Virus record (IMG/VR): IMGVR_UViG_2731957841_000001
Location: 1 to 19,805 of that record
Direction: 5' to 3' (one strand)
DNA: 19,805 bases
Source: a virus
Lineage: Duplodnaviria; Heunggongvirae; Uroviricota; Caudoviricetes
Under the pieces are notes generated by a model. The model ran no database searches and had not been told where the DNA came from. It was given only the letters and a program-made list of their open reading frames with translations. Of the stretch, positions 872-19,739 are shown in pieces; the stretch's first letter is position 1; each line of letters starts with the position of its first letter. Both the position numbers and the translations under genes were made by a program.

Positions 872-876
872 GGCTA

Positions 877-1344: not shown

Positions 1345-1509
1345 TATTTATCCCTCTAGGCTTGGTGTCTAAGCAGCCAATCTTATTAAAGATATCGACC
1401 GTTAGAAATCTTTGAATACCAAGTTAACTTATAGTGGCATACATAGCTGAATAAATCGAGATTCAAACGTGCTAAAATGTGATGAATATGGATGAGCAGT
1501 GCTTTCATT

Positions 1510-2529: not shown

Positions 2530-2717
2530 AAAAAATGCCCTCCAATAGAGAGCATTTTTACTGTATGTATAACCAGTGTCAATATATGAAATCCTGCGAC
2601 CATACATCTCACTGAAGCCATAATGAAGTAGGCTATTCTTTTTGCTATGTGAGCATGTAACTTTTGCGGTTAACCTGTGGCTCATTTTTATTTTAGGCGC
2701 AGATATAAAAGCAAAAG

Positions 2718-2909
2718 TTATCGTGAGTTTTTAGTACAGATTTTTTTGGATTTACTAATAGTTCCATCATTGCAAACGAATTTGCCATCTGAGGTACAGT
2801 GAGAAACACCTCCCTTTTTCCCTGAGCAGGGATAATTTCTAGCATAGGTAGCTAGTGGGTTTAATAACAAAGAACATGACAAAACCACAAAAAATACCTT
2901 ACCAAGCAT
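2718..2909 (-). CDS. Small secreted Cys-rich protein (63 aa), moron-like ORF between cI and int
   Basis: Strong GGAGG RBS 5-6 nt upstream of the ATG; N-terminus [23 protein letters not shown] looks like a Sec signal peptide; basic mature part with 4 Cys. AT-rich relative to flanking genes. Confidence 0.5.
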
Positions 2910-2924
2910 AATTTCCTCCCGGTA

Positions 2925-3494
2925 CTATTTAACATACTTGACTGTTAAACTTATAATTTTACCAATTATTTCAATGTCTTCTATCTTGCATTCGAAGGCT
3001 CTGTTTCCACCCTCGACGAAGATTCTTCCACCGGGTAAACGAGTAATGTCACGGATCGTTATTTCGCCATCAATACTTATTACCCATTTACCATCACGTA
3101 TATCATCAAATTCCTTATCACAAATAAATTCAGAATTATTATCTGTGATTACAAAAAGATTCTTGAATGCCGACGGTAGAAATTCTCTATCGAAAATATA
3201 AAAACCGTCTTCACACAAGGCCCCATCAGATAATACATATTTAGCAACTTCCATAGTATTTGTATTACCTGAAGTTTGCTTTGAACCATGCCCGGTTGTG
3301 AGCCAATTAAGCGAGGTGCCTGTTTCAAGGGCGCACTGGATTACCCATTCTGCTGGGAATGAGTCACGCATGTAGCGTGTGGCGAGTGTACTTTTAGAGA
3401 TTCCTAAATGATCGCACAACGCCTGTCGAGTCTTGAATCCATAAGCTTCTACCATGCGCTCTATAGCGCCTCGTCCGCCTTTCTCCAAATTCAT
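2925..3494 (-). CDS. cI: CI-type immunity repressor (coliphage 186 CI-like)
   Basis: Motifs VEAYGF...LGISKSTLATRYMR...CALETGTSLNWLTTGHG match my recollection of 186 CI; sits upstream of int on the same strand and faces apl/cII. Start taken at ATG 3494 with a GGAGTG RBS (the ORF track begins at a GTG two codons earlier). Confidence 0.75.
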   Translation of the reverse strand: MNLEKGGRGAIERMVEAYGFKTRQALCDHLGISKSTLATRYMRDSFPAEWVIQCALETGTSLNWLTTGHGSKQTSGNTNTMEVAKYVLSDGALCEDGFYIFDREFLPSAFKNLFVITDNNSEFICDKEFDDIRDGKWVISIDGEITIRDITRLPGGRIFVEGGNRAFECKIEDIEIIGKIISLTVKYVK

Positions 3495-3518
3495 GGTCAC
3501 TCCAAGTGAACTTTTATC

Positions 3519-3574
3519 TTGACGATTTCACTGTGCGATCGTATGTTTATGGTGTTCACAAAATACAAACGATC
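3519..3574 (+). promoter_or_regulatory. Candidate lytic promoter pR (-35 TTGACG 3519..3524, 17-bp spacer, -10 TATGTT 3542..3547) overlapping an imperfect inverted repeat (GATCGTATGT 3537..3546 / ACAAACGATC 3565..3574), a putative operator
   Basis: Hexamers and spacing read from the sequence; position between cI and apl fits a 186-type switch region. Operator assignment is inference. Confidence 0.4.
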
Positions 3575-3619
3575 CGTATTCGTCCTGATTAATCATCATT
3601 AAACGAGGAATGTTGCATC

Positions 3620-3841
3620 ATGAGACCTAACATTTCAATCACTCTTACTACACCTCATGTGACTATTGAACGCTATAGCGAGCTGACAGGGCTATCCATC
3701 GATACCATCAATGACATGTTGGCTGATGGACGCCTTATCCGTCACCGTCTGCGCAAAGATAAAAAACGCGAAAAAGTGATGATCAACATAGCAGCAATGA
3801 CCGTTGATGCGCTTTCAGAATGCAATCTAAACCTTAATTAG
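3620..3841 (+). CDS. apl: Apl/Cox-like excisionase and transcriptional regulator
   Basis: 73-aa ORF, first gene of the rightward early operon facing cI, with an HTH-like segment ([24 protein letters not shown]). Assigned by position and size. Confidence 0.55.
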
Positions 3842-3873
3842 TTCGATTCTGAAATACATCAGAGGCATTGACC

Positions 3874-4383
3874 ATGTTTGATTACCAAGTTTCCAAACAT
3901 CCACATTTTGATGAATCCTGTCGTGCATTCGCATTGCGCCACAACCTGGTGCAACTGGCAGAACGTGCTGGCATGAATGTGCAGATTCTGCGGAACAAGT
4001 TGAACCCAGCTCAACCTCATTTATTAACCGCACCAGAAATCTGGCTGCTTACCGATCTGACTGAAGATTCAACGCTGGTAGATGGTTTTCTGGCTCAGAT
4101 TCACTGCCTGCCATGCGTACCGATTAATGAGGTGGCAAAAGAGAAACTGCCACATTACGTCATGAGTGCAACCGCAGAGATCGGGCGTGTTGCTGCAGGT
4201 GCGGTATCTGGCGATGTAAAAACCAGTGCAGGTCGTCGTGATGCTATCAGCAGCATTAACTCTGTAACACGACTGATGGCGTTGGCTGCTGTTTCATTGC
4301 AGGCCCGTTTACAGGCTAACCCTGCGATGGCGAGTGCAGTTGATACCGTGACTGGCCTCGGTGCTTCATTTGGTTTGCTGTGA
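3874..4383 (+). CDS. cII: CII-like lysogeny establishment regulator (186 CII-like)
   Basis: 169 aa from ATG 3874 (AGAGG RBS 8 nt upstream); [23 protein letters not shown]... closely matches my recollection of 186 CII. Confidence 0.8.
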
Positions 4384-4390
4384 GGTGCTT

Positions 4391-4687
4391 ATGCTGACGA
4401 AAGAACCATCATTTGCATCGCTGCTGGTAAAACAAAGCCCGGCAATGCACTACGGTCACGGCTGGATCACGGGTGAGGATGGAAAACGCTGGCATCCATG
4501 TCATTCACAAGATGAATTGCTGTCTGAATTGACCACGAGGAAACGGAGAAAGTCCAAATGTATGCGGCAGAAAGTGAAGTGGTTTATCAGTTTCGTTACA
4601 GAGGGGAGAGTTATTCAGTACCTGAAGATGATTTGCTCTGTTGCTATCCGTCATTGTCGGGCGATGGCAGTTACTTTTTCACGTTAA
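4391..4687 (+). CDS. Hypothetical early protein; its 3' part overlaps the next ORF out of frame
   Basis: ATG 4391 with a GAGGTG RBS just after the cII stop; the distal part of the translation is Cys/Arg-rich and unconvincing. Confidence 0.3.
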   Translation: MLTKEPSFASLLVKQSPAMHYGHGWITGEDGKRWHPCHSQDELLSELTTRKRRKSKCMRQKVKWFISFVTEGRVIQYLKMICSVAIRHCRAMAVTFSR

Positions 4688-4782
4688 AGGATGGGACGTT
4701 TTTACGGGGAGAGCAGGTTAAAGAGACGATACGAAAAAATGTATCTCCTCTTGAGCGTTACCGTAAGAACAAAGAACGATAG
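4558..4782 (+). CDS. Hypothetical early protein (74 aa)
   Basis: Protein-like translation (MYAAESEVVYQFRYRGESYSVPEDD...), GGAG upstream; overlaps 4391..4687 in another frame. Confidence 0.45.
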   Translation: MYAAESEVVYQFRYRGESYSVPEDDLLCCYPSLSGDGSYFFTLKDGTFLRGEQVKETIRKNVSPLERYRKNKER

Positions 4783-4804
4783 CTGCGTTTGGGGGATATG
4801 AAGT

Positions 4805-5146
4805 ATGGCAATTAATGGCGCTGCAGCGACTGTTCCATTAAGCCCCGGTGAACGCCTGAATGGACTTAATCACATTGCGGAGTTAAGGGCGAAAGTGTTT
4901 GGCCTGAATATTGAGTCAGAGCTTGAGCGGTTTATTAAAGATATGCGTGATCCACGGGATATCAATAATGAACAAAATAAACGGGCACTGGCTGCCATAT
5001 TCTTTATGGCAAAAATTCCAGCTGAACGTCATAGCATCAGCATTAATGAGCTGACCACTGACGAAAAGCGGGAGTTGATTAAAGCAATGAATCATTTTCG
5101 TGCAGTGGTGAGCTTATTTCCCAGACGGCTAACCATGCCGAATTAA
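4805..5146 (+). CDS. Hypothetical early protein (113 aa)
   Basis: ORF with a GGGGGA RBS 8 nt upstream of the ATG; same strand and operon context as the other early genes. Confidence 0.5.
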   Translation: MAINGAAATVPLSPGERLNGLNHIAELRAKVFGLNIESELERFIKDMRDPRDINNEQNKRALAAIFFMAKIPAERHSISINELTTDEKRELIKAMNHFRAVVSLFPRRLTMPN

Positions 5147-5213
5147 CCAACTAATGAAATTAATGGCGTAAACCCGCCGGGCATCCCTTTATCTAAATTC
5201 AGGAGAATTGATT

Positions 5214-5447
5214 ATGCGTAATATTGAAACCCTCACGACTAAAACCGGACCGGATGACGCAGGGCTTAATATTTTACTGACAGAGGCTCGTCTGGAAGAA
5301 CGCCGGGCAAGGGCTGAAGCAATGGCTGCCCGCCTTGATAGTCTTGCGTGTCATATCACATCCCGCCAGCTAAACCACGTCGAAGCGGCAGAACTGCTGC
5401 GTGTGACCGCTGAAGCAATCCAGAACGAAGCGCAGGAGATCCACTAA
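5214..5447 (+). CDS. Hypothetical early protein (77 aa)
   Basis: Start taken at ATG 5214 with an AGGAG RBS at 5201..5205 (the ORF track begins at TTG 5208, too close to the RBS). Stop overlaps the next start (TAATG). Confidence 0.5.
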   Translation: MRNIETLTTKTGPDDAGLNILLTEARLEERRARAEAMAARLDSLACHITSRQLNHVEAAELLRVTAEAIQNEAQEIH

Positions 5448-5674
5448 TGGCTGATGCAATGGATCTCGTACAGCAGCGCGTTGAAGAAGAACGCCAGCGC
5501 CATATCCGTGCTGCCCGTGCCAAAACACCGGGCGTGTCTCGCGTGCTTTGTATTGAATGTGAAGCGCCAATTCCGCCAGCACGCCGCCGCGCCATTCCTG
5601 GAGTGCAGCTTTGCATTACCTGCCAGGAAATCGCAGAGCTGAAAGGCAAACATTACAACGGAGGTGCTGTATGA
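5447..5674 (+). CDS. TraR/DksA-family C4 zinc-finger protein
   Basis: 75 aa with CIECEAP...CITCQ (C-x2-C ... C-x2-C), typical of the small TraR-like proteins in P2-family early operons. Confidence 0.65.
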   Translation: MADAMDLVQQRVEEERQRHIRAARAKTPGVSRVLCIECEAPIPPARRRAIPGVQLCITCQEIAELKGKHYNGGAV

Positions 5675-6528
5675 GCACCATCCTGAAATGGGCGGGTAAT
5701 AAAACCGCCATTATGTCCGAACTGAAAAAATACCTTCCTGCTGGCCCGCGACTGGTTGAACCTTTCGCGGGTTCTTGTGCTGTGATGATGGCGACGGATT
5801 ACCCCAGCTATCTGGTTGCGGATATTAATCCTGATTTAATCAACCTCTATAAAAAGATTGCCGCTGATTGCGAAGCGTTTATATCTCGTGCCAGAGTTTT
5901 ATTTGAGGAAGCAAACAGTGAGCTGGCTTATTACAACATAAGACAGGAGTTTAATTACTCAACTGAAATTACTGATTTCATGAAGGCGATATATTTCCTG
6001 TATCTCAATCGTCACGGTTACCGTGGTTTATGTCGCTATAACAAGAGCGGGCATTTCAACATTCCCTACGGTAATTATAAAAATCCGTATTTCCCTGAAA
6101 AAGAAATTCGCGCATTTGCAGAGAAAGCCCCGCGGGCAACGTTTATCTGCGCCAGCTTTGATGAAACGCTGGCGATGTTGAAGGCGGGGGATGTGGTGTA
6201 TTGCGATCCGCCGTATGACGGTACGTTTTCCGGCTATCACACTGATGGTTTCACTGAAGATGACCAGTATCACCTGGCATCCGTTCTTGAACATCGGTCA
6301 TCAGAAGGTCATCCGGTCATTGTTTCTAACAGTGACACATCCCTGATTCGTTCGCTGTATCGCAATTTCACTCACCACTACATCAAGGCAAAACGCAGCA
6401 TCGGCGTGTCGGCTGGCGAGAGTAAATCTGCAACAGAAATCATTGCTGTTTCCGGGGCGCGCTGCTGGGTGGGATTTGATCCTTCGCGTGGCGTGGATAG
6501 TTCTGCTGTGTACGAGGTGCGTGTATGA
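5671..6528 (+). CDS. dam: DNA N6-adenine methyltransferase (Dam-like)
   Basis: Start at ATG 5671 (GGAGG RBS). N-terminal ILKWAGNK and PFAGSCAV (AdoMet-binding motif I) plus the catalytic DPPY motif ([10 protein letters not shown]). Stop overlaps the A start (ATGA). Confidence 0.8.
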
Positions 6529-8939
6529 GTCATGCCGATATGAGCGACTCTAGCGGCTTTAACGAGGCCGCTGCAGCATTTTCATGGAACGGCCCGAAAA
6601 AGGCCATAAACCCTTATCTGGACCCGGCGGAAGTTGCGCCGGTTTCTGCGCTTTCAAACCTGATCACTCTGTATGCTGCCGATAACGAGCAGGAACAGCT
6701 GCGCCGCGAGGAATTGAGTGAACAGGTCTGGGAGCGTTATTTCTTTAATGAATCCCGTGATCCTGTCCAGCGCGAAATGGAGCAGGATAAGCTCATTAGT
6801 CGGGCAAAGCTGGCGCATGAGCAGCAGCGTTTTAACCCGGACATGGTCATTCTGGCGGACGTCAGCGCCCAGCCCACCCACATCAGCAAGCCGCTGATGC
6901 AACGTATCGAATACTTCAGCAGCCTGGGCAGGCCAAAGGCTTATTCCCGCTATTTGCGTGAGACGATTAAGCCATGTCTGGAGCGACTGGATTGTGTACG
7001 CGACAGTCAGCTATCTACTTCTTTCCGTTTTATGGCAAGCCATCAAGGGCTGGAGGGCCTGCTGATCCTGCCTGAAATGAGTCAGGATCAGGTGAAACGC
7101 CTGTCCACCCTGGTAGCTGCGCATATGAGCATGTGTCTTGAGGCCGCTTGTGGTGATTTGTATACCAACGATGACGTAAAGCCAGAAGAAATCCGCAAGA
7201 CATGGGAAAAGGTGGCAGCGGAAACCCTGCGTCTGGATGTTATCCCGCCTGCGTTTGAGAAACTTCGTCGGAAAAGAAACCGCCGCAAACCTGTGCCCTA
7301 TGAACTCATACCGGGTTCGCTGGCACGTATGCTTTGCGCCGACTGGTGGTATCGAAAATTGTGGAAGATGCGTTGCGAATGGCGGGAAGAGCAGTTGCGT
7401 GCTGTCTGTCTGGTCAGCAAAAAAGCATCTCCCTATGTCAGCTATGAAGCCGTGATGCATAAACGTGAGCAGCGCCGCAAGTCGCTGGAGTTTTTCCGTT
7501 CTCATGAACTGGTGAACGAAGACGGAGACACGCTGGATATGGAAGATGTGGTAAACGCCAGCAGCAGCAACCCGGCACATCGCCGCAATGAGATGATGGC
7601 CTGCGTTAAAGGTCTGGAGCTTATCGCGGAAATGCGCGGTGACTGCGCCGTTTTCTACACCATCACATGTCCGTCACGTTTCCATTCCACGCTCAATAAC
7701 GGCAGGCCCAACCCGACCTGGACAAATGCGACGGTAAGACAAAGCAGCGATTATCTGGTCGGCATGTTTGCTGCATTTCGTAAGGCGATGCACAAAACCG
7801 GGTTGCGCTGGTATGGCGTACGGGTGGCTGAGCCGCACCATGACGGTACTGTGCACTGGCATCTCATGTGTTTCATGCGCAAAAAAGACCGCCGCGCCAT
7901 TACTGCATTGTTGCGTAAGTTTGCCATCCGTGAAGACCGCGAGGAGCTGGGCAATAACACGGGCCCACGCTTTAAGTCTGAGCTGATAAACCCACGCAAA
8001 GGAACGCCGACAAGCTACATCGCAAAATACATCAGTAAGAACATTGACGGGCGTGGTCTGGCTGGCGAGATCAGCAAGGAAACGGGTAAATCCCTGCGTG
8101 ATAACGCCGAATACGTTAATGCCTGGGCGTCTCTGCATCGTGTTCAGCAGTTCCGCTTCTTTGGTATTCCGGGGCGCCAGGCTTACCGTGAACTGCGATT
8201 GCTGGCTGGTCAGGCGGCAAGACAACAGGGTGACAAAAAAGCAGGTGCGCCGGTACTGGATGATCCGCGTCTTGATGCCATCCTGGCTGCTGCTGATGCT
8301 GGTTGTTTTGCCACCTACATCATGAAGCAGGGCGGCGTACTGGTTCCCCGCAAATATCACCTTATCAGAACAGCTTATGAAATTAACGAAGAGCCGACTG
8401 CCTATGGCGATCACGGTATTCGTATTTATGGCATCTGGTCACCCATTTCAGAGGGCAAGATCTGCACTCATGCAGTGAAGTGGAAAATGGTTCGTAAGGC
8501 CGTTGACGTTCAGGAGGCGGTAGCCGACCAGGGCGCTTGCGCCCCTTGGACTCGTGGCAATAACTGTCCCCTTGCTGAAAATTTGTACCAACAAGGGAAA
8601 GACAAATCAGCTGATGGGGGCTCCAGAACGGACATTACCCGCATGGATGACAAGGAATTGCACGATTACCTGCACAGTATGAGCAAAAAAGATCGCCGGG
8701 AGCTGGCAGCAAGGTTGCGCTTGGTGAAACCGAAACGGCGTAAAGACTACAAACAGCGAATTACAGATCATCAGCATCAGCAGCTCGTCTATGAACTGAA
8801 GTCCAGAGGATTTGATGGCAGCGAGAAAGAAGTCGATTTGCTCCTTCGCGGTGGCAGTATTCCGTCAGGAGCAGGCTTGCGTATCTTCTATCGGAACCAG
8901 CGTTTGCGGGAAGATGATAAGTGGCGGAACCTGTATTAA
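6525..8939 (+). CDS. A: Rolling-circle replication initiator (P2 gene A-like HUH endonuclease)
   Basis: 804 aa; HUH-type motif ([10 protein letters not shown]) and paired active-site tyrosines ([10 protein letters not shown]); size and position match P2/186 gene A. Confidence 0.85.
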
Positions 8940-9030
8940 TTACGCGGGTTAACAATTCGTGCTCTTAATAATACCAGGCATATCAGGCTGATGAACGTAA
9001 AAAAACGTTTTACATCAGTAAGATTATTAT

Positions 9031-9050
9031 ATACTGTAAATATAAACAGT
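9031..9050 (+). promoter_or_regulatory. LexA (SOS) box TACTGTAAATATAAACAGTG overlapping a promoter (-35 TTTACA 9008..9013, -10 TATACT 9029..9034)
   Basis: Perfect CTGT-N8-ACAG with an AT-rich centre, directly upstream of the small ORF and DinI-like operon. Confidence 0.6.
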
Positions 9051-9092
9051 GGTTATGTATACAGCATTTCTTGTGGTGTCATAGGAGGAAAG

Positions 9093-9281
9093 ATGCAGGA
9101 CTATTTTTTGGAGTCTTTGAAGCTCCAGCGCATTGATTTTTTTCTTAAGCTTGTAGCGGCTAGTGAGTGTAGTGATGAAGAGAAGGGGCTGGCTTTGCAG
9201 TGGGTTTCTGAACTAACAGATGAACTCATGGCAAAAATCAGAACCCACGAATACAACCGCTCAATGGATGTCATCAGTTGA
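9093..9281 (+). CDS. Small hypothetical protein (62 aa) in the position of a 186 Tum-type antirepressor
   Basis: AGGAGG RBS 4-5 nt upstream of ATG 9093. The longer track ORF starting at 8991 is rejected because the promoter and LexA box lie inside it. Confidence 0.45.
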   Translation: MQDYFLESLKLQRIDFFLKLVAASECSDEEKGLALQWVSELTDELMAKIRTHEYNRSMDVIS

Positions 9282-9291
9282 GGTGACTTTT

Positions 9292-9525
9292 ATGCGCATT
9301 GAAATAATGATCGATAAAGAGCAGAAGATTAGCCAGTCTATCCTGGACGCCCTTGAATCCGAGCTTTACCGCAATCTGCGCCCCCTGTATCCCAAAACGG
9401 TAATTCGTATCCGCAAAGGTAGCTCTAACGGTGTGGAACTGACCGGACTGCAACTGGACGAAGAAAGAAAACAAGTGATGAAAATTATGCAGAAGGTGTG
9501 GGAAGACGACAGCTGGCTGCATTAA
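9292..9525 (+). CDS. DinI-family protein
   Basis: MRIEIMIDKEQ...ILDALESELYRNL...VWEDDSWL aligns along its length with E. coli DinI as I recall it (MRIEVTIAK...IDALAGELSRRI...TWESADDWF). GAGGTGA RBS. Confidence 0.8.
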   Translation: MRIEIMIDKEQKISQSILDALESELYRNLRPLYPKTVIRIRKGSSNGVELTGLQLDEERKQVMKIMQKVWEDDSWLH

Positions 9526-9527
9526 GA

Positions 9528-9570
9528 AACGTTGCTGGCGTCTGAACTTGCTTCTGACGTCAGCAACGTT
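9528..9570. terminator. Long hairpin (15-bp stem AACGTTGCTGGCGTC / GACGTCAGCAACGTT, 13-nt loop) between convergent genes
   Basis: Inverted repeat read from the sequence, 2 nt after the DinI-like stop; a U-rich tract follows only on the minus-strand transcript. Confidence 0.45.
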
Positions 9571-9791
9571 GAACAACTAGTTTAGTGGGGCATTAGTCAT
9601 GGGGTAAAATACAGTAACCATTATTTTCACTTCCGCTCAGATTTAACCGAACGTTAGTTTTGCTACGTATGATGGGCTGCAAATTACCTTTTGGGATTTG
9701 TGATAGATACGAAAATCCTATTAGATGCTTGTTAGACCGGAAGCGCCACTTCGAACGAAAAGTAATGGCCACTTATGCCGGTTTAAAAGCC

Positions 9792-10322
9792 TTAACCTTG
9801 TATAGTTATTTGAATATTTTCTTCATTGACACCAAAGTATAGGGCTAGCCCTGCTTTTGCCTCCTGAAGTGTTAACGGCTTAACTACATTTTCTTCTTCT
9901 TCTTCGTACTCATCACCCGCTTGATCGACAATCGAATTAGTCGGGGTTAATTTTGGAAGAGCTTTAAATTCCAACTTGTCAGCCTCAATGCCAATGTCTT
10001 TGAGGTTGCGATAAGAAACGGGATTCCGATTGCCATCCCATTGTCCTGGGATGTCAATTTCAGCATAAGAATTGATGTTTATGATCCAGCGTTTAGGGTT
10101 TTCTGGAGCCCTGCTTACTCCCGAGATTCGACCGATCATAAAAGCATGATGATGTTTTGCTTCTTGTGATCCCCAGTCCTTTCTCGAATTTTGTACACAA
10201 ACTAAATATTCGTGCTTAGCTGCATGGCTGGCGTCAAGTCTCCATGCTTGGCTTCCCCCTGTGTTCAAAATCTCTGTTAAACCACGAGCAGTAAGTACAG
10301 TAATACAGTTGGTAGTAGCCAT
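9792..10322 (-). CDS. Hypothetical 176-aa protein, opposite-strand orphan in the cargo interval
   Basis: Long AT-rich ORF with a His-rich patch (KHHHAF), a WDGNRN motif and an acidic linker (DEYEEEEEN). No family recognised. Confidence 0.55.
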   Translation of the reverse strand: MATTNCITVLTARGLTEILNTGGSQAWRLDASHAAKHEYLVCVQNSRKDWGSQEAKHHHAFMIGRISGVSRAPENPKRWIININSYAEIDIPGQWDGNRNPVSYRNLKDIGIEADKLEFKALPKLTPTNSIVDQAGDEYEEEEENVVKPLTLQEAKAGLALYFGVNEENIQITIQG

Positions 10323-10637
10323 TGAATTGTGACCCCGTCTTTTTTAGAGAAATACTATTGATGAATGTAGTTTACGTATTTTTTTATTGAGTAGTCAAGT
10401 TAGTATTCTGCTCGTTATTGGCTGTTTTTTGAGTGTTGTGAGTTAGTACTTTGTGTAGTACCTCTTGGTTTATGAGGGTTAAATCTAAGTTATGACAAAG
10501 GGAGGCAGGGGGAACGCGCAGCGCAAGGTGTACAGGAGGCCATAAGGACTCACTTGAAGTAAGAAAAGATCGATAAAGCAACAATGCATGTCTATGCCGC
10601 ATGAATTCGCATGATCGTTTGAGGATCGTTTTAGCTG

Positions 10638-10667
10638 AGGCCCGCTAGGAATGGCGGGCTTTTGTTT
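10638..10667 (+). terminator. Rho-independent terminator-like hairpin (GCCCGC / GCGGGC stem, 8-nt loop) followed by TTTTGTTT
   Basis: Read from the sequence; no plus-strand gene lies upstream within about 1 kb. Confidence 0.45.
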
Positions 10668-10708
10668 ATGTCATGCAAGTGCATGAAAACCACTACATAA
10701 AGCGGGCA

Positions 10709-10727
10709 GGCGTGGCGGGGATACGAG
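10709..10727. other. cos-like motif GGCGTGGCGGGGATACGAG
   Basis: First 13 nt match the 186 cohesive end as I recall it (GGCGTGGCGGGGAAAGCAT; P2 is GGCGAGGCGGGGAAAGCAC). It is a GC-rich island in AT-rich spacer between the A-side cargo and Q. Confidence 0.35.
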
Positions 10728-10764
10728 CGCGCGCTGGGAGGTATAAGAATGAAGTACAATTAAC

Positions 10765-10792
10765 TTCACTTTGTTGAGTAAAATGCTATAAG
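10765..10792 (+). promoter_or_regulatory. Candidate sigma70 promoter for the OLD-like gene (-35 TTCACT, 16-bp spacer, -10 TATAAG)
   Basis: Hexamers read from the sequence about 70 bp upstream of ATG 10859; weak match, unverified. Confidence 0.25.
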
Positions 10793-10858
10793 AATAATGC
10801 AAATTATTGAGTCCCATTAGTTCAAAACTTAGGGATATCTTATGTGAAAGGAGGTTAT

Positions 10859-12544
10859 ATGTTAGATAAATTGATTTTTAATTCAGGAAGTAATCCAACA
10901 TCTAAATCTTCATTATCGGTTGACTTGACTCCATTGACAATTTTTGTGGGGCCGAATAATAGTGGTAAATCTAGAGCTTTAATCGATATAGAAAATCAAC
11001 TGACAACCCGAAATGCAGCGCAGGGAGAAGTAATAAAACAGATATTAATCAAACCACTTTCTGAGGATGAAGCAAAAAAGGAAATTGAATCTTTACAAGT
11101 TGAGCCAAACCAGGATGAAAAGCATGCGGGGCATGTTGTTTTATCTAGGCTAAACCTCCGTGGTGAAGGAATATCTAGGATTCTAGTGTATTTGGATGGA
11201 ATGTTAAGAGAATTCCAGCAACCCAATGAATTCAATCGGGAGCATCTATATCAATATTACTCGTTGCTGACTCTAAGGTTGGATGGTAGAAGTCGACTTT
11301 CCTTAACTTCAAGTCAAGGTTCATCCGATTTACAAGGAGAACCTACGAATAACCTTTCATTTCTTTTTAAAAATAATAAAGCAAGGATGGAGCTAAGAGA
11401 TATCGTTTTTGATGCTTTCGGGAAGTATCTTGTTATTGATCCAACAAATATAGGTTATCTTAGAATTCGTCTTTCTGAGCGCGCTCCTGAGACTGAACAA
11501 GAAGAAAGAGGTTGGGATGAAAAGTCAGTGCTTTTTCATTCAAAAGCGTCATTGATTACAGAGGCTAGCGATGGTGTTAATGCTTTTGTTGGGATGATGA
11601 TTTCGCTGATAGTTGGCTCACCAAAGGTGACTCTAATTGATGAGCCGGAAGCTTTTTTACATCCATCCTTATGCTCAAAGTTAGGAAAGGAAATATCTAG
11701 GATTAGTGCTCATAGTAATAAAAATGTGTTTATTTCAACGCATAGCGCTAATTTTTTAATGGGTTGTGTTCAAGGTAAAGTGCCATTGAATATAGTTAGG
11801 CTTACTTTTGATGGTAAATCTGGTACGTCTAGATTACTAACAAAGGAACAATTGACGCCGCTCATGAGAAATCCGTTATTAAGATCTATTGGTGTGCTAA
11901 ACGCATTGTTTTATAATTACGTTGTCGTTACTGAAGCGGATGCAGATAGGGCATTTTATCAAGAGATTAATGAGCGCTTATTGGCTGCTGGAGATCCTCG
12001 GGGTATTGAGGGATGCCTGTTTTTGAATGCTCAAAACAAACAAACTGTTTGGGATATAGTAAAACCCCTTCGTGAGCTAGGTATTCCCTGCGTTGGAGTG
12101 GTAGATATCGATATATTGAAGGAGGGAGGAGTTGTATGGAAAAAACCAATGCTTGGAGCTTTTTTTCCAGAAATGAAGCATGAAACTTTAGGTTTGGAAA
12201 GACAAAAGCTTTTTCAAGCCTTCAAAAATACGAATAAAAATATGAAGACAGATGGGGGCCTCTCCTTGTTATCGGGTTCAGATAAAACCGCCTGCTCTGA
12301 GTTTTTTAAATCCCTTTCAGATTATGGGGTTTTTGTCGTTCCAACGGGCGAGATCGAGTCTTGGTTGCAAAATCTTGAAATAGGTCGAGGAAAGAATACT
12401 TGGTTAACAAGTATTTTCGAGAAGATGGGGGATGATCCTAATGATGAATCATATGTGAAGCCATCTGAAGGTGATGTTTGGGATTTTATTGGGAATATAA
12501 AGCACTGGTTGGTTAACCCTGAAAGGAAGGGTATTCCCGAGTGA
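10859..12544 (+). CDS. OLD-family nuclease: N-terminal ABC-type ATPase plus C-terminal Toprim domain (P2 Old-like, class 1 arrangement)
   Basis: Start at ATG 10859 (AGGAGG RBS). Walker A (FVGPNNSGKS), signature-like EASDGVNAF, Walker B (VTLIDEPEAFLHP), H-loop (ISTHSA); C-terminal Toprim-like acidic motifs (VVVTEADADRAF, VGVVDIDIL). No adjacent helicase gene. Confidence 0.7.
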   Translation: MLDKLIFNSGSNPTSKSSLSVDLTPLTIFVGPNNSGKSRALIDIENQLTTRNAAQGEVIKQILIKPLSEDEAKKEIESLQVEPNQDEKHAGHVVLSRLNLRGEGISRILVYLDGMLREFQQPNEFNREHLYQYYSLLTLRLDGRSRLSLTSSQGSSDLQGEPTNNLSFLFKNNKARMELRDIVFDAFGKYLVIDPTNIGYLRIRLSERAPETEQEERGWDEKSVLFHSKASLITEASDGVNAFVGMMISLIVGSPKVTLIDEPEAFLHPSLCSKLGKEISRISAHSNKNVFISTHSANFLMGCVQGKVPLNIVRLTFDGKSGTSRLLTKEQLTPLMRNPLLRSIGVLNALFYNYVVVTEADADRAFYQEINERLLAAGDPRGIEGCLFLNAQNKQTVWDIVKPLRELGIPCVGVVDIDILKEGGVVWKKPMLGAFFPEMKHETLGLERQKLFQAFKNTNKNMKTDGGLSLLSGSDKTACSEFFKSLSDYGVFVVPTGEIESWLQNLEIGRGKNTWLTSIFEKMGDDPNDESYVKPSEGDVWDFIGNIKHWLVNPERKGIPE

Positions 12545-12551
12545 GTTTATT

Positions 12552-12573
12552 GAGCCGCTTTAGCGGCTCTTTT
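12552..12573 (+). terminator. Rho-independent terminator (GAGCCGC-TTTA-GCGGCTC followed by TTTT) after the OLD-like gene
   Basis: Hairpin plus T-run 8 nt after the stop codon, in the 36-bp gap before the convergent Q stop. Confidence 0.55.
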
Positions 12574-12580
12574 CATATTC

Positions 12581-13609
12581 CTATGCAAGGTTATATTCAT
12601 TAAATTGCATTATTGGCTCCTTTATCCATTCATTTACTTCTTGAAGCCTTTTTTGCAATGGAATTAGCTCATTACGGACAAAGACCCTGCTGGCTTTCTC
12701 CACATCCCCAAATCCCCCGACATTATTTGGCATTATCCCCATCATTTGTGGCGGCACACGATGCGCAGCCATCATGTCATCCCGGCTCACGTTCTTGATA
12801 TTCAGAAACTCATCCTTCGCCGCGACTTCTGACAACGGGATGATCTGAAGCCCGTCCTTTTTGCCGTTAGGCGAGTACATAAACAGGTTGCGGAAGTTGC
12901 CAGGGCCTTTGGCGCTTTTCATCGCATTGCGGAGGTTGTTCACATCCTCCTGGTTCTGCGCGGCATCGGTCATGTACATGATGAAGCCTGCATGACTGCC
13001 GTTAATGTAATACTTCCGGCGGAACAGCGTGGCGGACTCGTTGAGCAGGGCTGACGGAATGGCAGAAAGATAACCTGGCAGGCCGTAGATCTCCTGGTTG
13101 ATGTCAGGTTCCATCAGATGAAAAATGCTGCCTTTCGTGAACTGATACGGCTGGGTTGTCATACCGTATTGCACAAACCAGTAGGTATCCAGGTCTAACC
13201 CGCGTCGGGTGTATTTTGCCAGCGCAGGCTCAAGGGCTATAACTTCACCGAATCGGTTCGTGCGTTTCTCCAGGTAGGCGTTACCAAATACCAGATAGTC
13301 CTGCACAAAACGCGAAAAAGCCTGTTGGCTGAGCAGCGGATGAGGGATATAGGTACTGGTCAGAATGTTGCACTTTACTGCAATCGGGGAACTGTGATGC
13401 ACGGCAGCCCGGAAGGTGCGCGCCAGTCCGTCAAAACTTACGGGTGGCTCATACCAGCGATCCGTCTGTACGCATTCCACATAGTCCAGCAGTTCGCGGC
13501 GGTCCAGTACAGGAATGGGATCACCAAAGCTGAAAGCTTCGGCTGAAGTTTGATTTTTATGCTGGCTCCGTTTCGTCGCAGCAGCGCGGTTTTTCTTACT
13601 CTTTCCCAT
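12581..13609 (-). CDS. Q: Portal protein (P2 gpQ-like)
   Basis: 342 aa from ATG 13609 (the track starts one codon earlier at TTG); directly downstream of the terminase gene with a TGATG stop/start overlap, as in the P2 PQ operon. Confidence 0.85.
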   Translation of the reverse strand: MGKSKKNRAAATKRSQHKNQTSAEAFSFGDPIPVLDRRELLDYVECVQTDRWYEPPVSFDGLARTFRAAVHHSSPIAVKCNILTSTYIPHPLLSQQAFSRFVQDYLVFGNAYLEKRTNRFGEVIALEPALAKYTRRGLDLDTYWFVQYGMTTQPYQFTKGSIFHLMEPDINQEIYGLPGYLSAIPSALLNESATLFRRKYYINGSHAGFIMYMTDAAQNQEDVNNLRNAMKSAKGPGNFRNLFMYSPNGKKDGLQIIPLSEVAAKDEFLNIKNVSRDDMMAAHRVPPQMMGIMPNNVGGFGDVEKASRVFVRNELIPLQKRLQEVNEWIKEPIMQFNEYNLA

Positions 13610-15375
13610 CAAAAAATCTCCACAATATTGCTGGTATTGGCGGACTCGCCCTGCAGCGGTTCGTTAAACAGTGCGTGCATTGTTGCCCAGGCCAGATCGG
13701 CGTGGCTGGCTTCTTCGCTGCGGCTAGCTTCATAGGTCGGGCGGTTGCCGCTGGCGGTGGTGGCGCGACGGATTGCCATGAATGACTGCGCAATGTCGGT
13801 GTGCCCGGCGTCAAACTCCAGACGGCGGTGGCTGATAATGTCGTAGGCCTTGAGTACCAGGGCGTTTTTAACGTTGGGGTTGTAGACAAACTCCCGGACG
13901 GCAGGAAAGAACGCTTTCACGTTCTCATAAACCCCGTGACCGACGCCTGTCGAGTCGATGCCGATATAGGTCACGTTGTACTGCTCGGTCAGTTTTTTGA
14001 TTGCATCAGCCTGGGCGCGGAAGTCCATCCCGCGCCACTGGTGACGCTCAAGAATGCGAAACTTACCGCCTGGCACGGCTGGCGGTGCCACCACCACGCA
14101 TCCGGCGCTGTCGCCATTCTGCGTACCTTTTGCCGGGTCATAACCGATCCACACCTCGCGCCAGCCAAACGGGCGCAGGGCCAGTGCATGAAAGTCGGTC
14201 CAGACTTCCCAACTGTCCACCATGCACGCCTGCAGCTCGCTGAGCGGAAACACGGATGCGAGATCGTCCACAAACTCGCACATCAGCAGGTTCTGGTATT
14301 CGTCCGGGCTGTACTCCATGCGTAGCTGGTCGAGGTCGAACAGGTTACAGCCGCCGCGCACCGCATCTTCCACGGTGACTATCTGGCGGTATTGCCCGTC
14401 TGCGCACAGCAGGCCGGGGGCCAGATTGCTGTGGGACAGGTCGATGTCCACCTTATCGGCTTTGTTGCGCCCACGGTTGAACAGCGCACCGGACCAGAAC
14501 GGATAAGCACTGTGTGTCAGACTGGATGGCGTGGAAAAATAGGTTTGTCGCCATTTTTTGTGAATAGCCATACCGGAAGCCACTTTGCGCAGCTCCTGGA
14601 ATTTCGGTATCCAGAAATATTCATCCAGATACAGGTTGCCGTGGTAACTCTGGGCCGTGCGGGCATTGGTGCCGAGGAAGTAAAGCGTGGCCCCGTTAGG
14701 AAGCACCATCGGATCGCCTTTCAGCTCCACCTCCACTTCTTTGGCAAAGTCGATGATGTACTGTTTAAAGACGTGGGCCTGAGCCTTGCTGGCAGAAAGG
14801 AAAATCTGGTTACGCCCGGTCAGCAGGGCGTCAATCAGGGCTTCACGGGCAAAGTAAAAGGTCGCGCCGATCTGGCGTGACTTCAGCAGGTTGCGGATGC
14901 GGTTGGTTTTTCCGGCTTCCCACCAGTGGCGCTGGTAGTTGAACATAGAGGAATGGAAGATTTCTTCCAGTTTCTCAATCTGTTCATCGGTGAAAACATT
15001 CTTTTCCGGCTGACGACGTGGGCCTTTGTTGCGGTTGGCAACGTTAGGGTTTAAGTCGGCTTCGTTGCCGCCATTGTTAAACTTGCCGATCCGCGCGTGG
15101 CGCTCAGACTGGCGTGCCAGCAGGTCAATTTCTTTGAAATCTTTCCCTTCTTTGTGCTCCTTCATAATGAGCTGGCAGTAGCGTGCGGCGGTGGTGAGCT
15201 GCATCTGATCCAGCGGCCCATAGTCACCCCACTTGTCGCGTTTTTTCCAGCTGTGAACGGTTGCAACTTTCTCGCCCAGCATTTCAGCAATGCGGGCGAC
15301 GCGGTATCCCTGAAAGTACAGCAGCATGGCCTGCCGACGGGGATCGAGATCTGCGGGTGTCAGTGTGGTGTTCAT
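13609..15375 (-). CDS. P: Terminase large (ATPase) subunit (P2 gpP-like)
   Basis: 588 aa; N-terminus (LDPRRQAMLLYFQGYRVARIAEMLG...HSWKKRDKW) and size match P2 gpP; followed by Q on the same strand. Confidence 0.85.
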   Translation of the reverse strand: MNTTLTPADLDPRRQAMLLYFQGYRVARIAEMLGEKVATVHSWKKRDKWGDYGPLDQMQLTTAARYCQLIMKEHKEGKDFKEIDLLARQSERHARIGKFNNGGNEADLNPNVANRNKGPRRQPEKNVFTDEQIEKLEEIFHSSMFNYQRHWWEAGKTNRIRNLLKSRQIGATFYFAREALIDALLTGRNQIFLSASKAQAHVFKQYIIDFAKEVEVELKGDPMVLPNGATLYFLGTNARTAQSYHGNLYLDEYFWIPKFQELRKVASGMAIHKKWRQTYFSTPSSLTHSAYPFWSGALFNRGRNKADKVDIDLSHSNLAPGLLCADGQYRQIVTVEDAVRGGCNLFDLDQLRMEYSPDEYQNLLMCEFVDDLASVFPLSELQACMVDSWEVWTDFHALALRPFGWREVWIGYDPAKGTQNGDSAGCVVVAPPAVPGGKFRILERHQWRGMDFRAQADAIKKLTEQYNVTYIGIDSTGVGHGVYENVKAFFPAVREFVYNPNVKNALVLKAYDIISHRRLEFDAGHTDIAQSFMAIRRATTASGNRPTYEASRSEEASHADLAWATMHALFNEPLQGESANTSNIVEIF

Positions 15376-15424
15376 GGCACAAACCTACAGCCTTGAATGA
15401 AGGCTTTCCCCGCCTGCGGTTTGT

Positions 15425-15943
15425 GTGGTTGAAGGACTTTCAGTTGCGGGGCCAACTGCAGCTTATGAATTTCATGCCCGAAGCGCCGACGGTCGGGTGG
15501 CGGATGCCAGTGCAACCAGCCCGGCACCTGCAGAGGTGGTGCTGACTGTCCTTAGCCGCGAAGGCGATGGAACTGCAGAAAAAGACCTGCTGGACGTGGT
15601 GGAAAAAGCTCTGAACAGTGAGAACGTCCGCCCGGTGGCTGACCGTCTTACGGTTCGCAGCGCAGAAATCATCCCGTATCGCGTGGAAGCCACCATTTTT
15701 CTCTATCCGGGACCGGAAGCAGAGCCGGTAATGGCAGCGGCAAAAGCCAGTCTGCAGAAGTACATTGCCAGCCAGACGAGGCTTGGTCGGGATATTCGCC
15801 GTAGCGCCATCTTTGCTGCTCTGCATGTTGAGGGTGTTCAACGTGTGGAACTGGCTTCTCCGCTGGCGGATGTGGTCCTGAACAAAACACAGGCGGCATC
15901 ATGTACGCAGTGGAGCGTAACCAACGGAGGAACGGATGAATAG
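15425..15943 (+). pseudogene. J: Baseplate protein J, C-terminal fragment only
   Basis: Translation resembles the C-terminal part of P2-type gpJ (RPVADRLTVRSAEIIPYRVEATIFLYPG...IFAALHVEGVQRVEL), and its stop overlaps the next start as at the P2 J/I junction. It begins about 50 bp after the P start codon, so O-N-M-L-lysis-R-S-V-W and the J N-terminus are absent. Confidence 0.6.
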
Positions 15944-17828
15944 TCTGCTGCCACCGGGTTCAACTTCACTGGAGCGCCGACTGGCGCAAACCTGTAGCGG
16001 GATTTCTGATTTGCAGGTGCCGCTGCGTGACTTGTGGAATCCGGCTATCCAGCGTGTGCTGGAGAAGGTGAACGCACTGCCGCAGGACAAGCGTCTGTCT
16101 GCCATGACCATGTTGTTTGGTAAAGAGTTTGGCGATGACGCGGCGAAACTGGCAAACAACCTGCCGGAACTACAGCGCCAGCTAAAACTGACAGCGGGCA
16201 ATGATGCGCTCGGTTCCATGCAGAAAGAATCCGACATCAACAAGGACTCACTTTCTGCTCAGTGGTTGCTGGTTAAAACCGGAGCGCAGAATACCTTCAG
16301 CAGCCTGGGCGAAACGCTGCGCCAGCCGCTGATGGATATTCTGTACACGGTGAAAAGCGTTACGGGAGCGTTGCGTCGCTGGGTGGAAGCTAACCCGGAA
16401 CTGACGGGCACACTGATGAAAGTAGCCGCTATTGTGGCTGCGGTTACCGTCGGCCTCGGCACCTTGGCTGTGGCGCTGGCTGCAGTGCTGGGGCCGCTGG
16501 CAGTCATCCGTCTGGGATTCTCTGTGCTGGGCATCAAAACGTTACCTTCCGTTACGGCAGCAGTAACACGAACCAGCAGCGCGTTGTCCTGGCTGGCTGG
16601 CGCACCACTGGCACTGCTGCGACACGGGCTTGCTTTATCGGGTAACGCAGCGGGTTTACTTACTGCGCCGTTGTCGTCTTTGCGCCGTACGGCATCACTG
16701 ACGGGAAATGTCCTGAAAACTGTTGCAGGTGCGCCGGTTGCACTTTTGCGGTCTGGATTATCCGGTTTACGTGCGGTTGCTGTGATGTTTATGAATCCTC
16801 TGGCGGTACTGCGCGGTGGACTGACCGCCGCAGGTACGGTGCAGCGAGTACTGGCATCTGGTCCACTGGCGATGCTGCGCGTTGCCCTGTATGCCATATC
16901 TGGTCTGTTAGGTGCTCTGCTCAGTCCGATAGGTCTAGTGGTTACTGCACTGGCAGGCGTGGCGCTGGTTGTCTGGAAATACTGGCAACCCATCACCGCA
17001 TTTCTCGGTGGCGTGGTGGAGGGATTCAAAGCGGCGGCAGGTCCCGTCAGTGCCGCATTCGAACCACTTAAGCCTGTGTTCCAGTGGATTGGCGACAAAG
17101 TGCAGGCGCTGTGGGGCTGGTTTACTGACCTGCTGACGCCCGTTAAGTCGACCTCTGCCGAACTGCAGAGTGCAGCGGCAATGGGGCGACGATTCGGGGA
17201 GGCTCTGGCGGAAGGGCTGAATATGGTCATGCATCCGCTGGACTCCCTGAAATCCGGCGTTTCCTGGTTGCTGGAGAAACTCGGCATTGTCAGTAAAGAG
17301 GCCGCAAAGGCAAAACTACCGGAAAGCGTGACGCGTCAGCAACCTGCGACGGTGAATGCAGACGGCAAAGTGATGATGCCATCGGGTGGTTTTCCATCAT
17401 GGGGATATGGCTTTGCGGGGATGTATGACAGCGGCGGGTATATCCCGCGCGGGCAGTTTGGCATCGTCGGTGAAAACGGGCCGGAAATTGTTAACGGCCC
17501 GGCAAATGTGACCAGCCGGAGAAATACAGCTGCACTGGCTGCCGTTGTTGCCGGAATGATGGGCGTTGCTGCCGCGCCAGCAGAGCTTCCACCGTTGCAC
17601 CCTTTGGCACTTCCCGCGAAAGGTGGAGAAGCAATTGTGAGTCGCGCAGCCACTGTGCCGCTCGTTCAACGGATTGAGGCACCGACGCAGATCATCATTC
17701 AGACGCAGCCAGGACAAAGTGCGCAGGATATTGCGCGGGAGGTGGCACGCCAGCTTGATGAACGTGAACGCAGGCTGAAGGCAAAAGCCAGGAGTAACTA
17801 CAGCGATCAGGGGGGATACGACGCATGA
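15936..17828 (+). CDS. T: Tail tape measure protein, truncated; the first ~37 codons look like the N-terminus of tail protein I (in-frame deletion fusion)
   Basis: N-terminus LLPPGSTSLERRLA...VPLRDLWNP resembles the gpI start, then switches to tape-measure-like sequence with degenerate PLAxLRxGL repeats and the C-terminal MYDSGGYIPRGQFGIVGENGPEIV motif. Stop overlaps the U start (ATGA). Confidence 0.65.
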   Translation: MNSLLPPGSTSLERRLAQTCSGISDLQVPLRDLWNPAIQRVLEKVNALPQDKRLSAMTMLFGKEFGDDAAKLANNLPELQRQLKLTAGNDALGSMQKESDINKDSLSAQWLLVKTGAQNTFSSLGETLRQPLMDILYTVKSVTGALRRWVEANPELTGTLMKVAAIVAAVTVGLGTLAVALAAVLGPLAVIRLGFSVLGIKTLPSVTAAVTRTSSALSWLAGAPLALLRHGLALSGNAAGLLTAPLSSLRRTASLTGNVLKTVAGAPVALLRSGLSGLRAVAVMFMNPLAVLRGGLTAAGTVQRVLASGPLAMLRVALYAISGLLGALLSPIGLVVTALAGVALVVWKYWQPITAFLGGVVEGFKAAAGPVSAAFEPLKPVFQWIGDKVQALWGWFTDLLTPVKSTSAELQSAAAMGRRFGEALAEGLNMVMHPLDSLKSGVSWLLEKLGIVSKEAAKAKLPESVTRQQPATVNADGKVMMPSGGFPSWGYGFAGMYDSGGYIPRGQFGIVGENGPEIVNGPANVTSRRNTAALAAVVAGMMGVAAAPAELPPLHPLALPAKGGEAIVSRAATVPLVQRIEAPTQIIIQTQPGQSAQDIAREVARQLDERERRLKAKARSNYSDQGGYDA

Positions 17829-19407: not shown

Positions 19408-19496
19408 TTCTTCGCAATGGAGAACTTTTAAGTTTGCAAAATGGAATAATGCGGTATCATTATTGTGAATTTAGCAAAAATGGGAGAACTCGAAAA

Positions 19497-19715: not shown

Positions 19716-19716
19716 C

Positions 19717-19739
19717 GCTGCCGCCATTTTGTCGCCATC
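19717..19739. repeat. Putative attR core: CGCTGCCGCCATTTTGTCGCCAT, direct repeat of 94..116
   Basis: 22/23 identity with the left copy; starts 2 nt after the ogr stop codon. Confidence 0.55.

Follow-up and report, generated by a model that had tools for sequence, protein, structure and literature searches.

We analysed a stretch of DNA of 19,805 nucleotides (IMG/VR virus record IMGVR_UViG_2731957841_000001, positions 1 to 19,805), which we call the window. It is a P2-like prophage of Escherichia coli and, over positions 5500-15431, is 100% identical to strain 1297KP. Our subject is a minus-strand gene at 9792-10322 that encodes a protein of 176 amino acids (aa), annotated in RefSeq as the hypothetical protein WP_000246368.1. 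We tentatively read this gene as a single-gene accessory cassette whose product would recognize a nucleobase or nucleotide and carries no effector of its own. The features that bear on this reading, with the predicted local distance difference test score (pLDDT) given where structure is concerned, are as follows.

9792..10322, minus strand: coding sequence of the 176-aa protein WP_000246368.1, an ATG-to-stop open reading frame (ORF) and a member of phrog_37247, a large family without a Pfam model
9957..10322, minus strand: N-terminal domain (residues 1-122), a predicted PUA-like pseudobarrel
9879..9956, minus strand: linker (residues 123-148), variable and disordered, pLDDT <50 at residues 129-144
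9795..9878, minus strand: C-terminal element (residues 149-176), PLTxxEAKxGLAxxFGVxxxxIxITIxG, a helix at 152-163 and a hydrophobic tail
10369..10398, minus strand: sigma-70-like promoter TTGACT-18-TAAACT, a consensus match about 47 nt upstream of the ATG
10333-10336, minus strand: GGGG Shine-Dalgarno-like run preceding the ATG
9609..10584, no strand: extent of the single-gene cassette, a segment missing in a P2-like prophage (L003) that has the same OLD gene and no 176-aa gene
10585..10745, no strand: junction of about 150 bp, common to prophages with and without the cassette and with differing right-hand cargo
9528..9570, no strand: strong hairpin between the convergent DinI-like gene and the 176-aa gene
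6525-8939: Phage_GPA (replication gene A), to the left of the 176-aa gene
9292-9525, plus strand: DinI-like gene, convergent with the 176-aa gene
10859..12544, plus strand: OLD-family ATP-dependent nuclease (PADLOC Old, 1.3e-20; AAA_15/AAA_21/OLD-like TOPRIM), divergent from the 176-aa gene and an independent module

The original prediction, made from the letters of the window, had placed an AT-rich opposite-strand gene of 176 codons in the cargo interval between genes A and Q of the prophage, convergent with the DinI-like gene and divergent from the OLD-like gene, and on each of these points it was right. The ORF runs from ATG to stop on the minus strand over exactly 9792-10322, the GC content is 0.40-0.41 over 9600-10400 versus 0.51-0.55 in replication gene A, both neighbours have the predicted orientation, and the gene lies between Phage_GPA and the portal gene, which is the tin/old position of P2. 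Because RefSeq annotates the gene and homologues at 27-99% identity retain the same motifs, we regard it as practically certain that this is a real gene, well beyond a chance ORF.

Local signals were consistent with a separate transcription unit to different degrees. The promoter scan found one sigma-70-like site versus 2.9 expected, which is weak evidence taken alone. The hairpin at 9528-9570 is strong on both strands (−27.8 kcal/mol, z = −5.6 on the plus strand; −23.1 kcal/mol, z = −4.6 on the minus strand), and a U-rich run (UUUCUU) comes after it on the minus strand, so that it probably acts as a terminator in both directions. An Rfam scan of the whole window gave no match to an RNA in the 520-bp region upstream of the gene. 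The non-coding flanks of the cassette (262 bp upstream and 183 bp downstream) are conserved along with the gene. Two small minus-strand ORFs lie within these untranslated flanks, at 10384-10602 (72 aa) and 9593-9772 (59 aa); they have no family matches and no RefSeq annotation and are therefore probably not genes.

Next, we looked at how widely the protein is distributed. It had been described as an orphan that could not be assigned, and this label fails. The profile of phrog_37247, a phage protein family of unknown function, matched the protein over its full length (hidden Markov model [HMM] search, E value = 6.3e-94, with residues 1-176 aligned to all 189 profile positions). A word-indexed search returned 74 relatives, and an exhaustive HMM search of 1.84 billion representatives returned 1014 clusters (defined at 50% identity) with E<=1e-3, of which 308 reached E<=1e-30, and almost all are 160-190 aa long; in addition, 193 plasmids carry a homologue. 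Members occur in Gamma-, Beta-, and Alphaproteobacteria, Actinobacteria, Myxococcota, Chloroflexota, Planctomycetota, Acidobacteriota, Nitrospirota, and a Nitrosotalea archaeon. In the last of these, Candidatus Nitrosotalea sp. TS, a single 20-kb contig (NZ_RCMB01000012.1) holds two family copies (L038 and L040) about 12 kb apart.

Every source labels the family members "hypothetical protein." The 176-aa protein had no match among the Pfam, NCBIfam, and PADLOC profiles, and a scan against PADLOC-DB v2 gave 0 defence families at E<=0.1. The literature searched held no paper citing WP_000246368 or the accessions of its plasmid homologues, and the P2-hotspot studies made no mention of the gene. 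The sensitive HMM and structure searches that had been proposed as a check thus led to phrog_37247 and to a fold-level likeness to PUA-like proteins, described below, but not to any characterised family in Pfam, NCBIfam, or PADLOC.

Alignments and residue conservation, the latter computed over 329 sequences, divided the protein into the three parts listed above. The N-terminal domain comprises strands b1 (5-11), b2 (23-27), b3 (39-44), b4 (59-71), b5 (79-92), and b6 (102-106) and one helix, a1 (15-21). Twelve of its positions are near-invariant: T11 (96%), G23 (96%), W27 (97%), N45 (93%), H57 (91%), F61 (98%), R78 (98%), W95 (99%), R99 (95%), N100 (93%), P101 (100%), and Y104 (100%). These include an aromatic and polar set (W27, F61, W95, Y104, T11, N45, H57, R78, R99, N100, and P101) that is nearly invariant across phyla.

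Three motifs had been singled out in the window protein, a His-rich patch, WDGNRN, and a strongly acidic linker, and all three are present (KHHHAF, WDGNRN, and DEYEEEEEN), but family-wide only H57 and W95/G97/R99/N100 are conserved. The acidic linker does not hold as a family trait: it is confined to the enterobacterial clade, the median net charge of the linker in the family is −1, and 67% of linkers are negative. Linker length ranges from 10 to 34 aa, and neither length nor charge is conserved. The C-terminal element, by contrast with the linker, is conserved (A155, 96%; K156, 93%; I172, 94%) and is found in 319 of the 329 members, including homologues of only 27-30% identity on ColE1-like plasmids and in jumbo phages; it is missing from the effector fusions described below.

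AlphaFold2 was run twice, with 37 and with 139 sequences, and gave the same model both times (mean pLDDT, 86.2 and 87.5; predicted template modelling score, 0.68 and 0.70). In the model, the N-terminal domain is a six-stranded barrel-like structure with pLDDT >90, the linker is disordered, and the helix at 152-163 and its tail are confidently predicted; the run with the deeper alignment, examined for strand pairing of the C-terminal tail, left the model unchanged, with the tail confident and not assigned as a strand. The structural matches (scores in parentheses) were PH1033/UPF0310 (7.3), the YTH domains of Mmi1, YTHDC1, and YTHDC2 (6.6-6.9), the EVE-HNH protein VcaM4I (6.9), the 5-hydroxymethylcytosine (5hmC)-specific PD-T4-3 (6.6), DrmA (6.6), ASCH proteins (5.5-6.0), THYN1 on DNA containing 5-methylcytosine (5mC) (5.7), and McrB N-terminal domains (4.6-5.0). 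The nearest models in BFVD were uncharacterised proteins of 125-130 aa from Erwinia phage Yoloswag and Aeromonas phage phiAS5. In the model, therefore, the pseudobarrel and its likeness to several member families place the protein within the PUA-like superfamily at the level of the fold, and the N-terminal 122 residues are predicted to form a PUA-like pseudobarrel of EVE/YTH/ASCH type. We consider it likely that this domain is a PUA-like ligand-binding domain.

Sequence-level membership in the known PUA-like families failed. A family-profile search of the PDB gave nothing at E<=10, and the window protein and 36 relatives had no Pfam match to EVE (PF01878), YTH (PF04146), or ASCH (PF04266) at E<=10. 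EVE membership was rejected by profile-profile comparison as well: hhalign against four solved EVE domains gave a probability of about 1% (E value = 0.057, 18 columns), and the aligned segment consisted solely of WDGNRN (residues 95-100) paired with WDGVRN of EVE (THYN1 residues 37-42). The ASCH motif GxKxxExR near the N terminus was absent on inspection, the equivalent segment being GGSQAWRL. Because membership in EVE, YTH, and ASCH fails at the sequence level, the window family is a distinct family inside the PUA-like superfamily.

The family nevertheless shares features with each of its structural neighbours. Like the EVE proteins (PF01878; THYN1, PH1033/UPF0310, PSPTO5229, and the EVE-HNH enzyme VcaM4I), it has, by inspection, a W ending strand b2, a hydrophobic "xxGxIxxV" strand, and a K/R-W strand, and both families have a W-D-G-x-R-N motif; stand-alone EVE proteins are also known (PMC7641849). 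Unlike EVE, it has the linker and the conserved C-terminal tail and a distribution centred on mobile elements. The W-D-G-x-R-N motif follows strand 5 in the window family, whereas in EVE it stands before helix 2 near the N terminus, and the shared motif could reflect convergence or a rearranged pocket element. The invariant W27, F61, W95, and Y104 (97-100% conserved) form a candidate aromatic cage that, by sequence conservation and the residues involved, recalls YTH domains, which are N6-methyladenine (6mA in DNA, m6A in RNA) readers and include the McrB N-terminal domain of Thermococcus gammatolerans; the family had no sequence-profile match to YTH, however, and YTH domains are essentially eukaryotic RNA readers.

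To find out whether the N-terminal domain occurs in other contexts, fusions were sought among the top 150 representatives (the best-scoring family members), and two proteins were longer than the stand-alone form. The first, P0205, joins the N-terminal domain (profile positions 5-129) to an AbiTii abortive-infection domain (2e-43). The second, P0213, joins it to a DUF3427-like segment (3e-5, under the Pfam cutoff) and an HNH_2 nuclease (5e-13). Neither retains the C-terminal element. Because both fusions exchange this element for an effector, the N-terminal domain would be a portable sensor module, and in the stand-alone proteins the C-terminal element appears to take the position of the effector. 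A second search with a 150-sequence profile yielded no further fusions among its 120 best matches, which were all stand-alone and without Pfam domains. Another relative (P0112, 224 aa) consists of two tandem N-terminal domains without the C-terminal element, an arrangement that hints at a reader working as a dimer.

These fusions recall the type IV restriction enzymes that carry PUA-type sensors (YenY4I, TspA15I/VcaM4I, PD-T4-3, and SauUSI-type DUF3427 proteins). YenY4I, a characterised modification-dependent enzyme, combines a PUA-superfamily domain, DUF3427, and a nuclease (PMC6765204), and P0213 shares its sensor-sensor-nuclease logic; PD-T4-3, an E. coli prophage enzyme, ranks among the best structural matches of the window protein. 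In contrast with these enzymes, the window protein has no nuclease or other catalytic domain, so that it is not a restriction enzyme by itself, and it has no conserved nuclease neighbour; a nuclease was found solely in its relative P0213. A second parallel is the sensor of the PUA-Calcineurin-CE-HAD system (PUA-Cal-HAD), whose pocket, of the PUA/ASCH clan, takes up a (modified) adenine mononucleotide and drives assembly (bioRxiv 10.64898/2026.01.15.699771). Members of that sensor family, too, are joined to numerous alternative effectors (HEPN, TIR, HNH, and McrB), and its motif V, "TPxYY" near residue 100, resembles, by motif description only, the invariant "NPVxY" (100-104) of the window family. 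It differs in its motif II, VWWGWWxKxxExxP, which is absent from the window protein, and in having the fused effector that the window protein lacks. Together, the model and the comparisons suggest a new PUA-like family with the architecture of a solo reader plus a tail, for which a reader function is predicted.

We then examined where the gene sits in E. coli. It is present in 8 of 5426 complete genomes, each time in a P2-like prophage and immediately behind its DinI-like gene. The right-hand neighbour varies: it is a HipA-like gene with a HIRAN gene in five genomes, an OLD-family nuclease in one, a retron St85 reverse transcriptase with its effector in one, and three hypothetical genes including a STAS-like one in one, so that in all eight carriers the gene adjoins a known or candidate defence module. 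In the five prophages of the first kind (L004, L005, L006, L059, and L060; e.g., L004, 5101-6752), the module encodes a weakly matching HipA_C-like protein of 304 aa and a HIRAN-domain protein of 246 aa, and it may be an uncharacterised defence system.

A functional tie to the neighbouring OLD-like protein, which the window gene had been suggested to inhibit, is contradicted by this distribution. At least 18 listed E. coli genomes have the same OLD gene (99.4% identity) and lack the 176-aa gene, only one of the eight carriers has OLD as the neighbour, and elsewhere the gene stands beside other modules, so that the two do not co-occur obligately. We therefore rejected the gene as a partner, inhibitor, or antitoxin of the adjacent OLD-like nuclease, since the two genes occur independently. 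A candidate site for recombination that swaps hotspot cargo is the junction at 10585-10745, within which lies a terminator-like hairpin (10637-10662, −20.5 kcal/mol). The gene has the location and layout of P2 hotspot cargo, being an independent swappable unit between A and Q. It resembles tin and old of P2 in occupying the same slot, between gene A/DinI and portal gene Q, in its low GC content, and in forming an independent transcription unit; it has no sequence or fold relationship to either Tin or Old. The original proposal of a novel defence or anti-defence gene thus survives in part: an uncharacterised, self-contained cargo gene does lie in the P2 A-Q defence hotspot, with a PUA-like fold and with effector fusions among its relatives, but it is not an orphan. 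Defence or anti-defence is still the class of explanation that suits it best.

The 176-aa gene is intact in a prophage that lacks the capsid genes and part of the tail genes. Compared with 1297KP, the window prophage has its post-terminase region joined to the 3' part of baseplate gene J at 15431/15432 and is missing about 7.3 kb of capsid-to-baseplate genes; a 630-aa ORF at 15936-17828 starts as tail protein I and continues as tape-measure-like sequence. Strain LP50-1 has a similar P/O-J junction. Because of these internal deletions relative to 1297KP, the window prophage is probably defective, with its cargo genes intact. Its other variable end, next to the integrase gene (1510-2685), holds a minus-strand pair at 116-1344, consisting of a SocA/Panacea-domain protein (877-1344; PF13274, 2e-19) followed by a 251-aa protein without a Pfam match (116-871). 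From its sequence, this pair looks like a PanA-type toxin-antitoxin or defence pair.

Outside E. coli prophages, the family is found chiefly on plasmids. By tblastn, it was present on 193 of 72,556 plasmids, 163 of which are classed as mobilizable, and most of which are 4.4-8.8 kb in size; 60 of the matches are Acinetobacter plasmids. On pABLAC2, a pRAY-type aadB plasmid of Acinetobacter, the gene comes directly after mobC-mobA on the same strand. A clade of 30% identity is the main cargo of 4.4- to 5.8-kb plasmids such as p52 of enterotoxigenic E. coli (ETEC) H10407 and pSEEH1578_03 of Salmonella Heidelberg. Among 50,697 phage records, two carried the gene, both from Brevundimonas jumbo phages. 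The gene also occurs in another slot of a P2-like prophage, on a small island beside an integrase gene, and among the clustered transfer genes of a Pseudomonas integrative and conjugative element (ICE).

No neighbour gene recurs across these settings. Across 40 loci we found no recurrent neighbour family, and a conserved partner was rejected by an all-against-all BLAST comparison (636 ORFs from 49 loci) and by Pfam and PADLOC censuses of 129 flanking proteins, which comprised generic mobile-element genes and occasional defence genes. The latter included HmaA (an SNF2 helicase) immediately downstream of the homologue in Azohydromonas, AbiU, and a type-IV-like restriction enzyme. On ColE1-like plasmids of Enterobacter, Salmonella, and Klebsiella, a gene for a Sel1-repeat (TPR-like) protein of about 195 aa starts 4-5 nt downstream of the homologue (L051, 1156-1746; L054, 1615-2199; L015, 3121-3750), which suggests a two-gene operon in this one ColE1-like enterobacterial clade only. 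On ETEC p52, the gene downstream of the homologue encodes an unrelated protein of 274 aa and not a Sel1-repeat protein. A remnant of the Sel1/TPR gene, as a lost partner in the window, was also rejected, since tblastn found none there. Finally, a link to Dpd 7-deazaguanine modification, raised by two strong PADLOC matches to DpdH, was rejected when one of the two, on contig L018, was traced to the N-terminal domain of a MobA/MobL relaxase; this contig is 4.6 kb long and resembles small mobilizable plasmids.

Taking these observations together, we favour, at a probability of roughly 0.4, an explanation in which the gene forms an autonomous accessory cassette of one gene, and its product is a nucleobase or nucleotide reader that lacks an effector and acts in conflicts between mobile elements. 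We place it among conflict systems because of the PUA-like fold and because of the fusions of the N-terminal domain to AbiTii and HNH effectors; that all eight E. coli carriers have it beside an OLD, retron St85, HipA-like plus HIRAN, or STAS-like-containing module supports the same placement. A conflict-related function of one kind or another seems reasonably probable to us. A role specifically in defence is more tentative and is slightly favoured over anti-defence because of the location in the P2 hotspot, the moron-like layout, the retention in a capsid-less prophage, and the nature of the fusions.

In mechanistic terms, the cassette would be expressed in the lysogen in the manner of a moron, antisense to the early operon. 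A pocket lined by the invariant residues would accommodate a modified or otherwise distinctive base, flipped out or free (6mA, 5mC/5hmC, or a derivative, for example), located in DNA, in RNA, or in a mononucleotide; a precedent for modified-nucleotide sensing in defence is the PUA pocket of PUA-Cal-HAD, which binds free N6-methyl-deoxyadenosine monophosphate (m6-dAMP) (bioRxiv 10.64898/2026.01.15.699771). The C-terminal element may serve as the output by docking, by oligomerization, or by recruiting a host factor. The most likely outcome would be restriction of incoming phage or foreign DNA that bears the recognized modification, either through occlusion or through recruitment of a cellular effector.

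Several points weigh against this explanation. The protein has no effector domain in the Pfam, PADLOC, and NCBIfam scans, and no known defence family in these collections matches it. The structural likeness is moderate, with no Foldseek match in the PDB at E<=1e-3 (best E value = 0.04), the profile-profile comparison with solved EVE domains gave the low probability reported above, and ligand binding is deduced from fold class and conservation only. Stoichiometric occlusion of a heavily modified T-even genome, with no catalytic or recruited activity, seems implausible. Moreover, most copies are carried by small mobilizable plasmids, in some cases immediately after the relaxase gene, and others are in an ICE transfer cluster and in jumbo phages; an establishment or anti-restriction role therefore fits this bias at least as well as defence does.

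Such a role is the strongest of the alternatives, though we judge it somewhat unlikely. Here, the stand-alone reader would be a decoy or shield for the methylated bases of its own element, or a sponge for a free modified-nucleotide alarm (m6-dAMP), and modification-dependent host defences (type IV and PUA-effector systems) would be blinded while plasmids, ICEs, and phages establish themselves. The 163 mobilizable plasmids among the 193 fit this idea, as does the fact that the gene is often their main or sole cargo (p52 and pSEEH1578_03), but most small enterobacterial plasmids are mobilizable anyway, so that the count by itself does not amount to an enrichment. The position directly behind mobC-mobA on pABLAC2, the copy within the ICE transfer-gene cluster, and the two jumbo Brevundimonas phages, together with N-terminal-domain-like folds in the Erwinia and Aeromonas phages, point in the same direction. 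The layout of the P2-like prophage copy, which has a promoter-like site of its own and runs antisense to the early operon in a defence-cargo locus, is unlike that expected of an early anti-restriction gene, and P2 hotspots reportedly contain few anti-defence genes (PMC13586616). Without an effector, a solo copy could compete with the same N-terminal domain acting as the sensor in the AbiTii and HNH fusions, and on a small replicon the modified sites are few enough for stoichiometric shielding to be feasible. There are PUA-effector systems that m6-dAMP triggers, and mobile-element proteins counter them (bioRxiv 10.64898/2026.01.15.699771), but the profile scans gave no similarity to ArdA, KlcA, Ocr, or known sponges; in particular, no Pfam or NCBIfam profile of ArdA, ArdB/KlcA, or Ocr-like anti-restriction proteins matched the 176-aa protein. 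The broader proposition, that the whole family consists of solo readers spread by plasmids, ICEs, and phages as decoys that blind host PUA-type sensors (type IV restriction and PUA-Cal-HAD-like systems), is rather doubtful. If true, it would amount to a general anti-defence strategy against modification sensing and would account for the many "cryptic" ColE1-like and pRAY-type plasmids that carry the gene.

A reader could also act in trans as a specificity subunit, inactive alone and lending its modification specificity through the C-terminal element to an effector encoded elsewhere (a host nuclease, helicase, or restriction complex, for instance), much like the stand-alone EVE proteins encoded beside type I R-M and SNF2-nuclease systems. 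That this element replaces the effector of the fusion proteins would suit such a role, as would the gene lying immediately upstream of HmaA in Azohydromonas, the Sel1/TPR protein as a protein-interaction partner on one ColE1-like clade, and the stand-alone EVE proteins tied to restriction systems (Bell et al. 2020, PMC7641849). However, the absence of a neighbour family conserved across the 40 loci and the four module types beside the gene in E. coli speak against this, and the spread over many phyla and tiny plasmids would demand a single universal host partner; we regard this explanation as clearly unlikely.

It is improbable that the protein is an enzyme and not a reader, i.e., a small ASCH-like hydrolase, glycosylase, or nuclease that takes out a modified base of DNA or RNA, or cuts there, through T11, N45, H57, R78, R99, and possibly K156. 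For a pure reader, the protein has unusually many invariant polar residues, and catalysis would account for a single protein of 176 aa acting on heavily modified phage DNA, but it has no known catalytic motif (ASCH GxKxxExR included), its best structural matches are readers, and its relatives fuse the N-terminal domain to separate nuclease or Abi effectors, suggesting a sensing role. Highly improbable, lastly, is a housekeeping or regulatory factor of the mobile element outside conflict, for example an epigenetic reader that adjusts replication, copy number, or expression to the state of Dam methylation. The gene is present on multicopy plasmids and prophages of Dam+ hosts, and six of the eight E. 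coli carrier prophages (the window's included) have a DNA adenine methylase gene immediately upstream of gene A. However, the occurrence of the 176-aa gene on chromosomes and plasmids is rare and patchy, it sits in cargo slots and not in backbone positions, some of the prophages that carry it lack the methylase, and it is found in phyla whose methylomes differ.

Modified-base sensors are central to type IV restriction and to the newly described nucleotide-triggered immunity, and in nearly all known cases they are linked to an effector. The family described here, unnamed and widespread (>1000 clusters in many phyla, with no Pfam model), keeps just the sensor and a short conserved tail. It rides in prophage defence hotspots and on the very common "cryptic" small plasmids of E. 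coli, Salmonella, Klebsiella, and Acinetobacter. Its ligand and output, once found, would explain what the main cargo of many of these plasmids does and would show whether solo readers defend or counter-defend.

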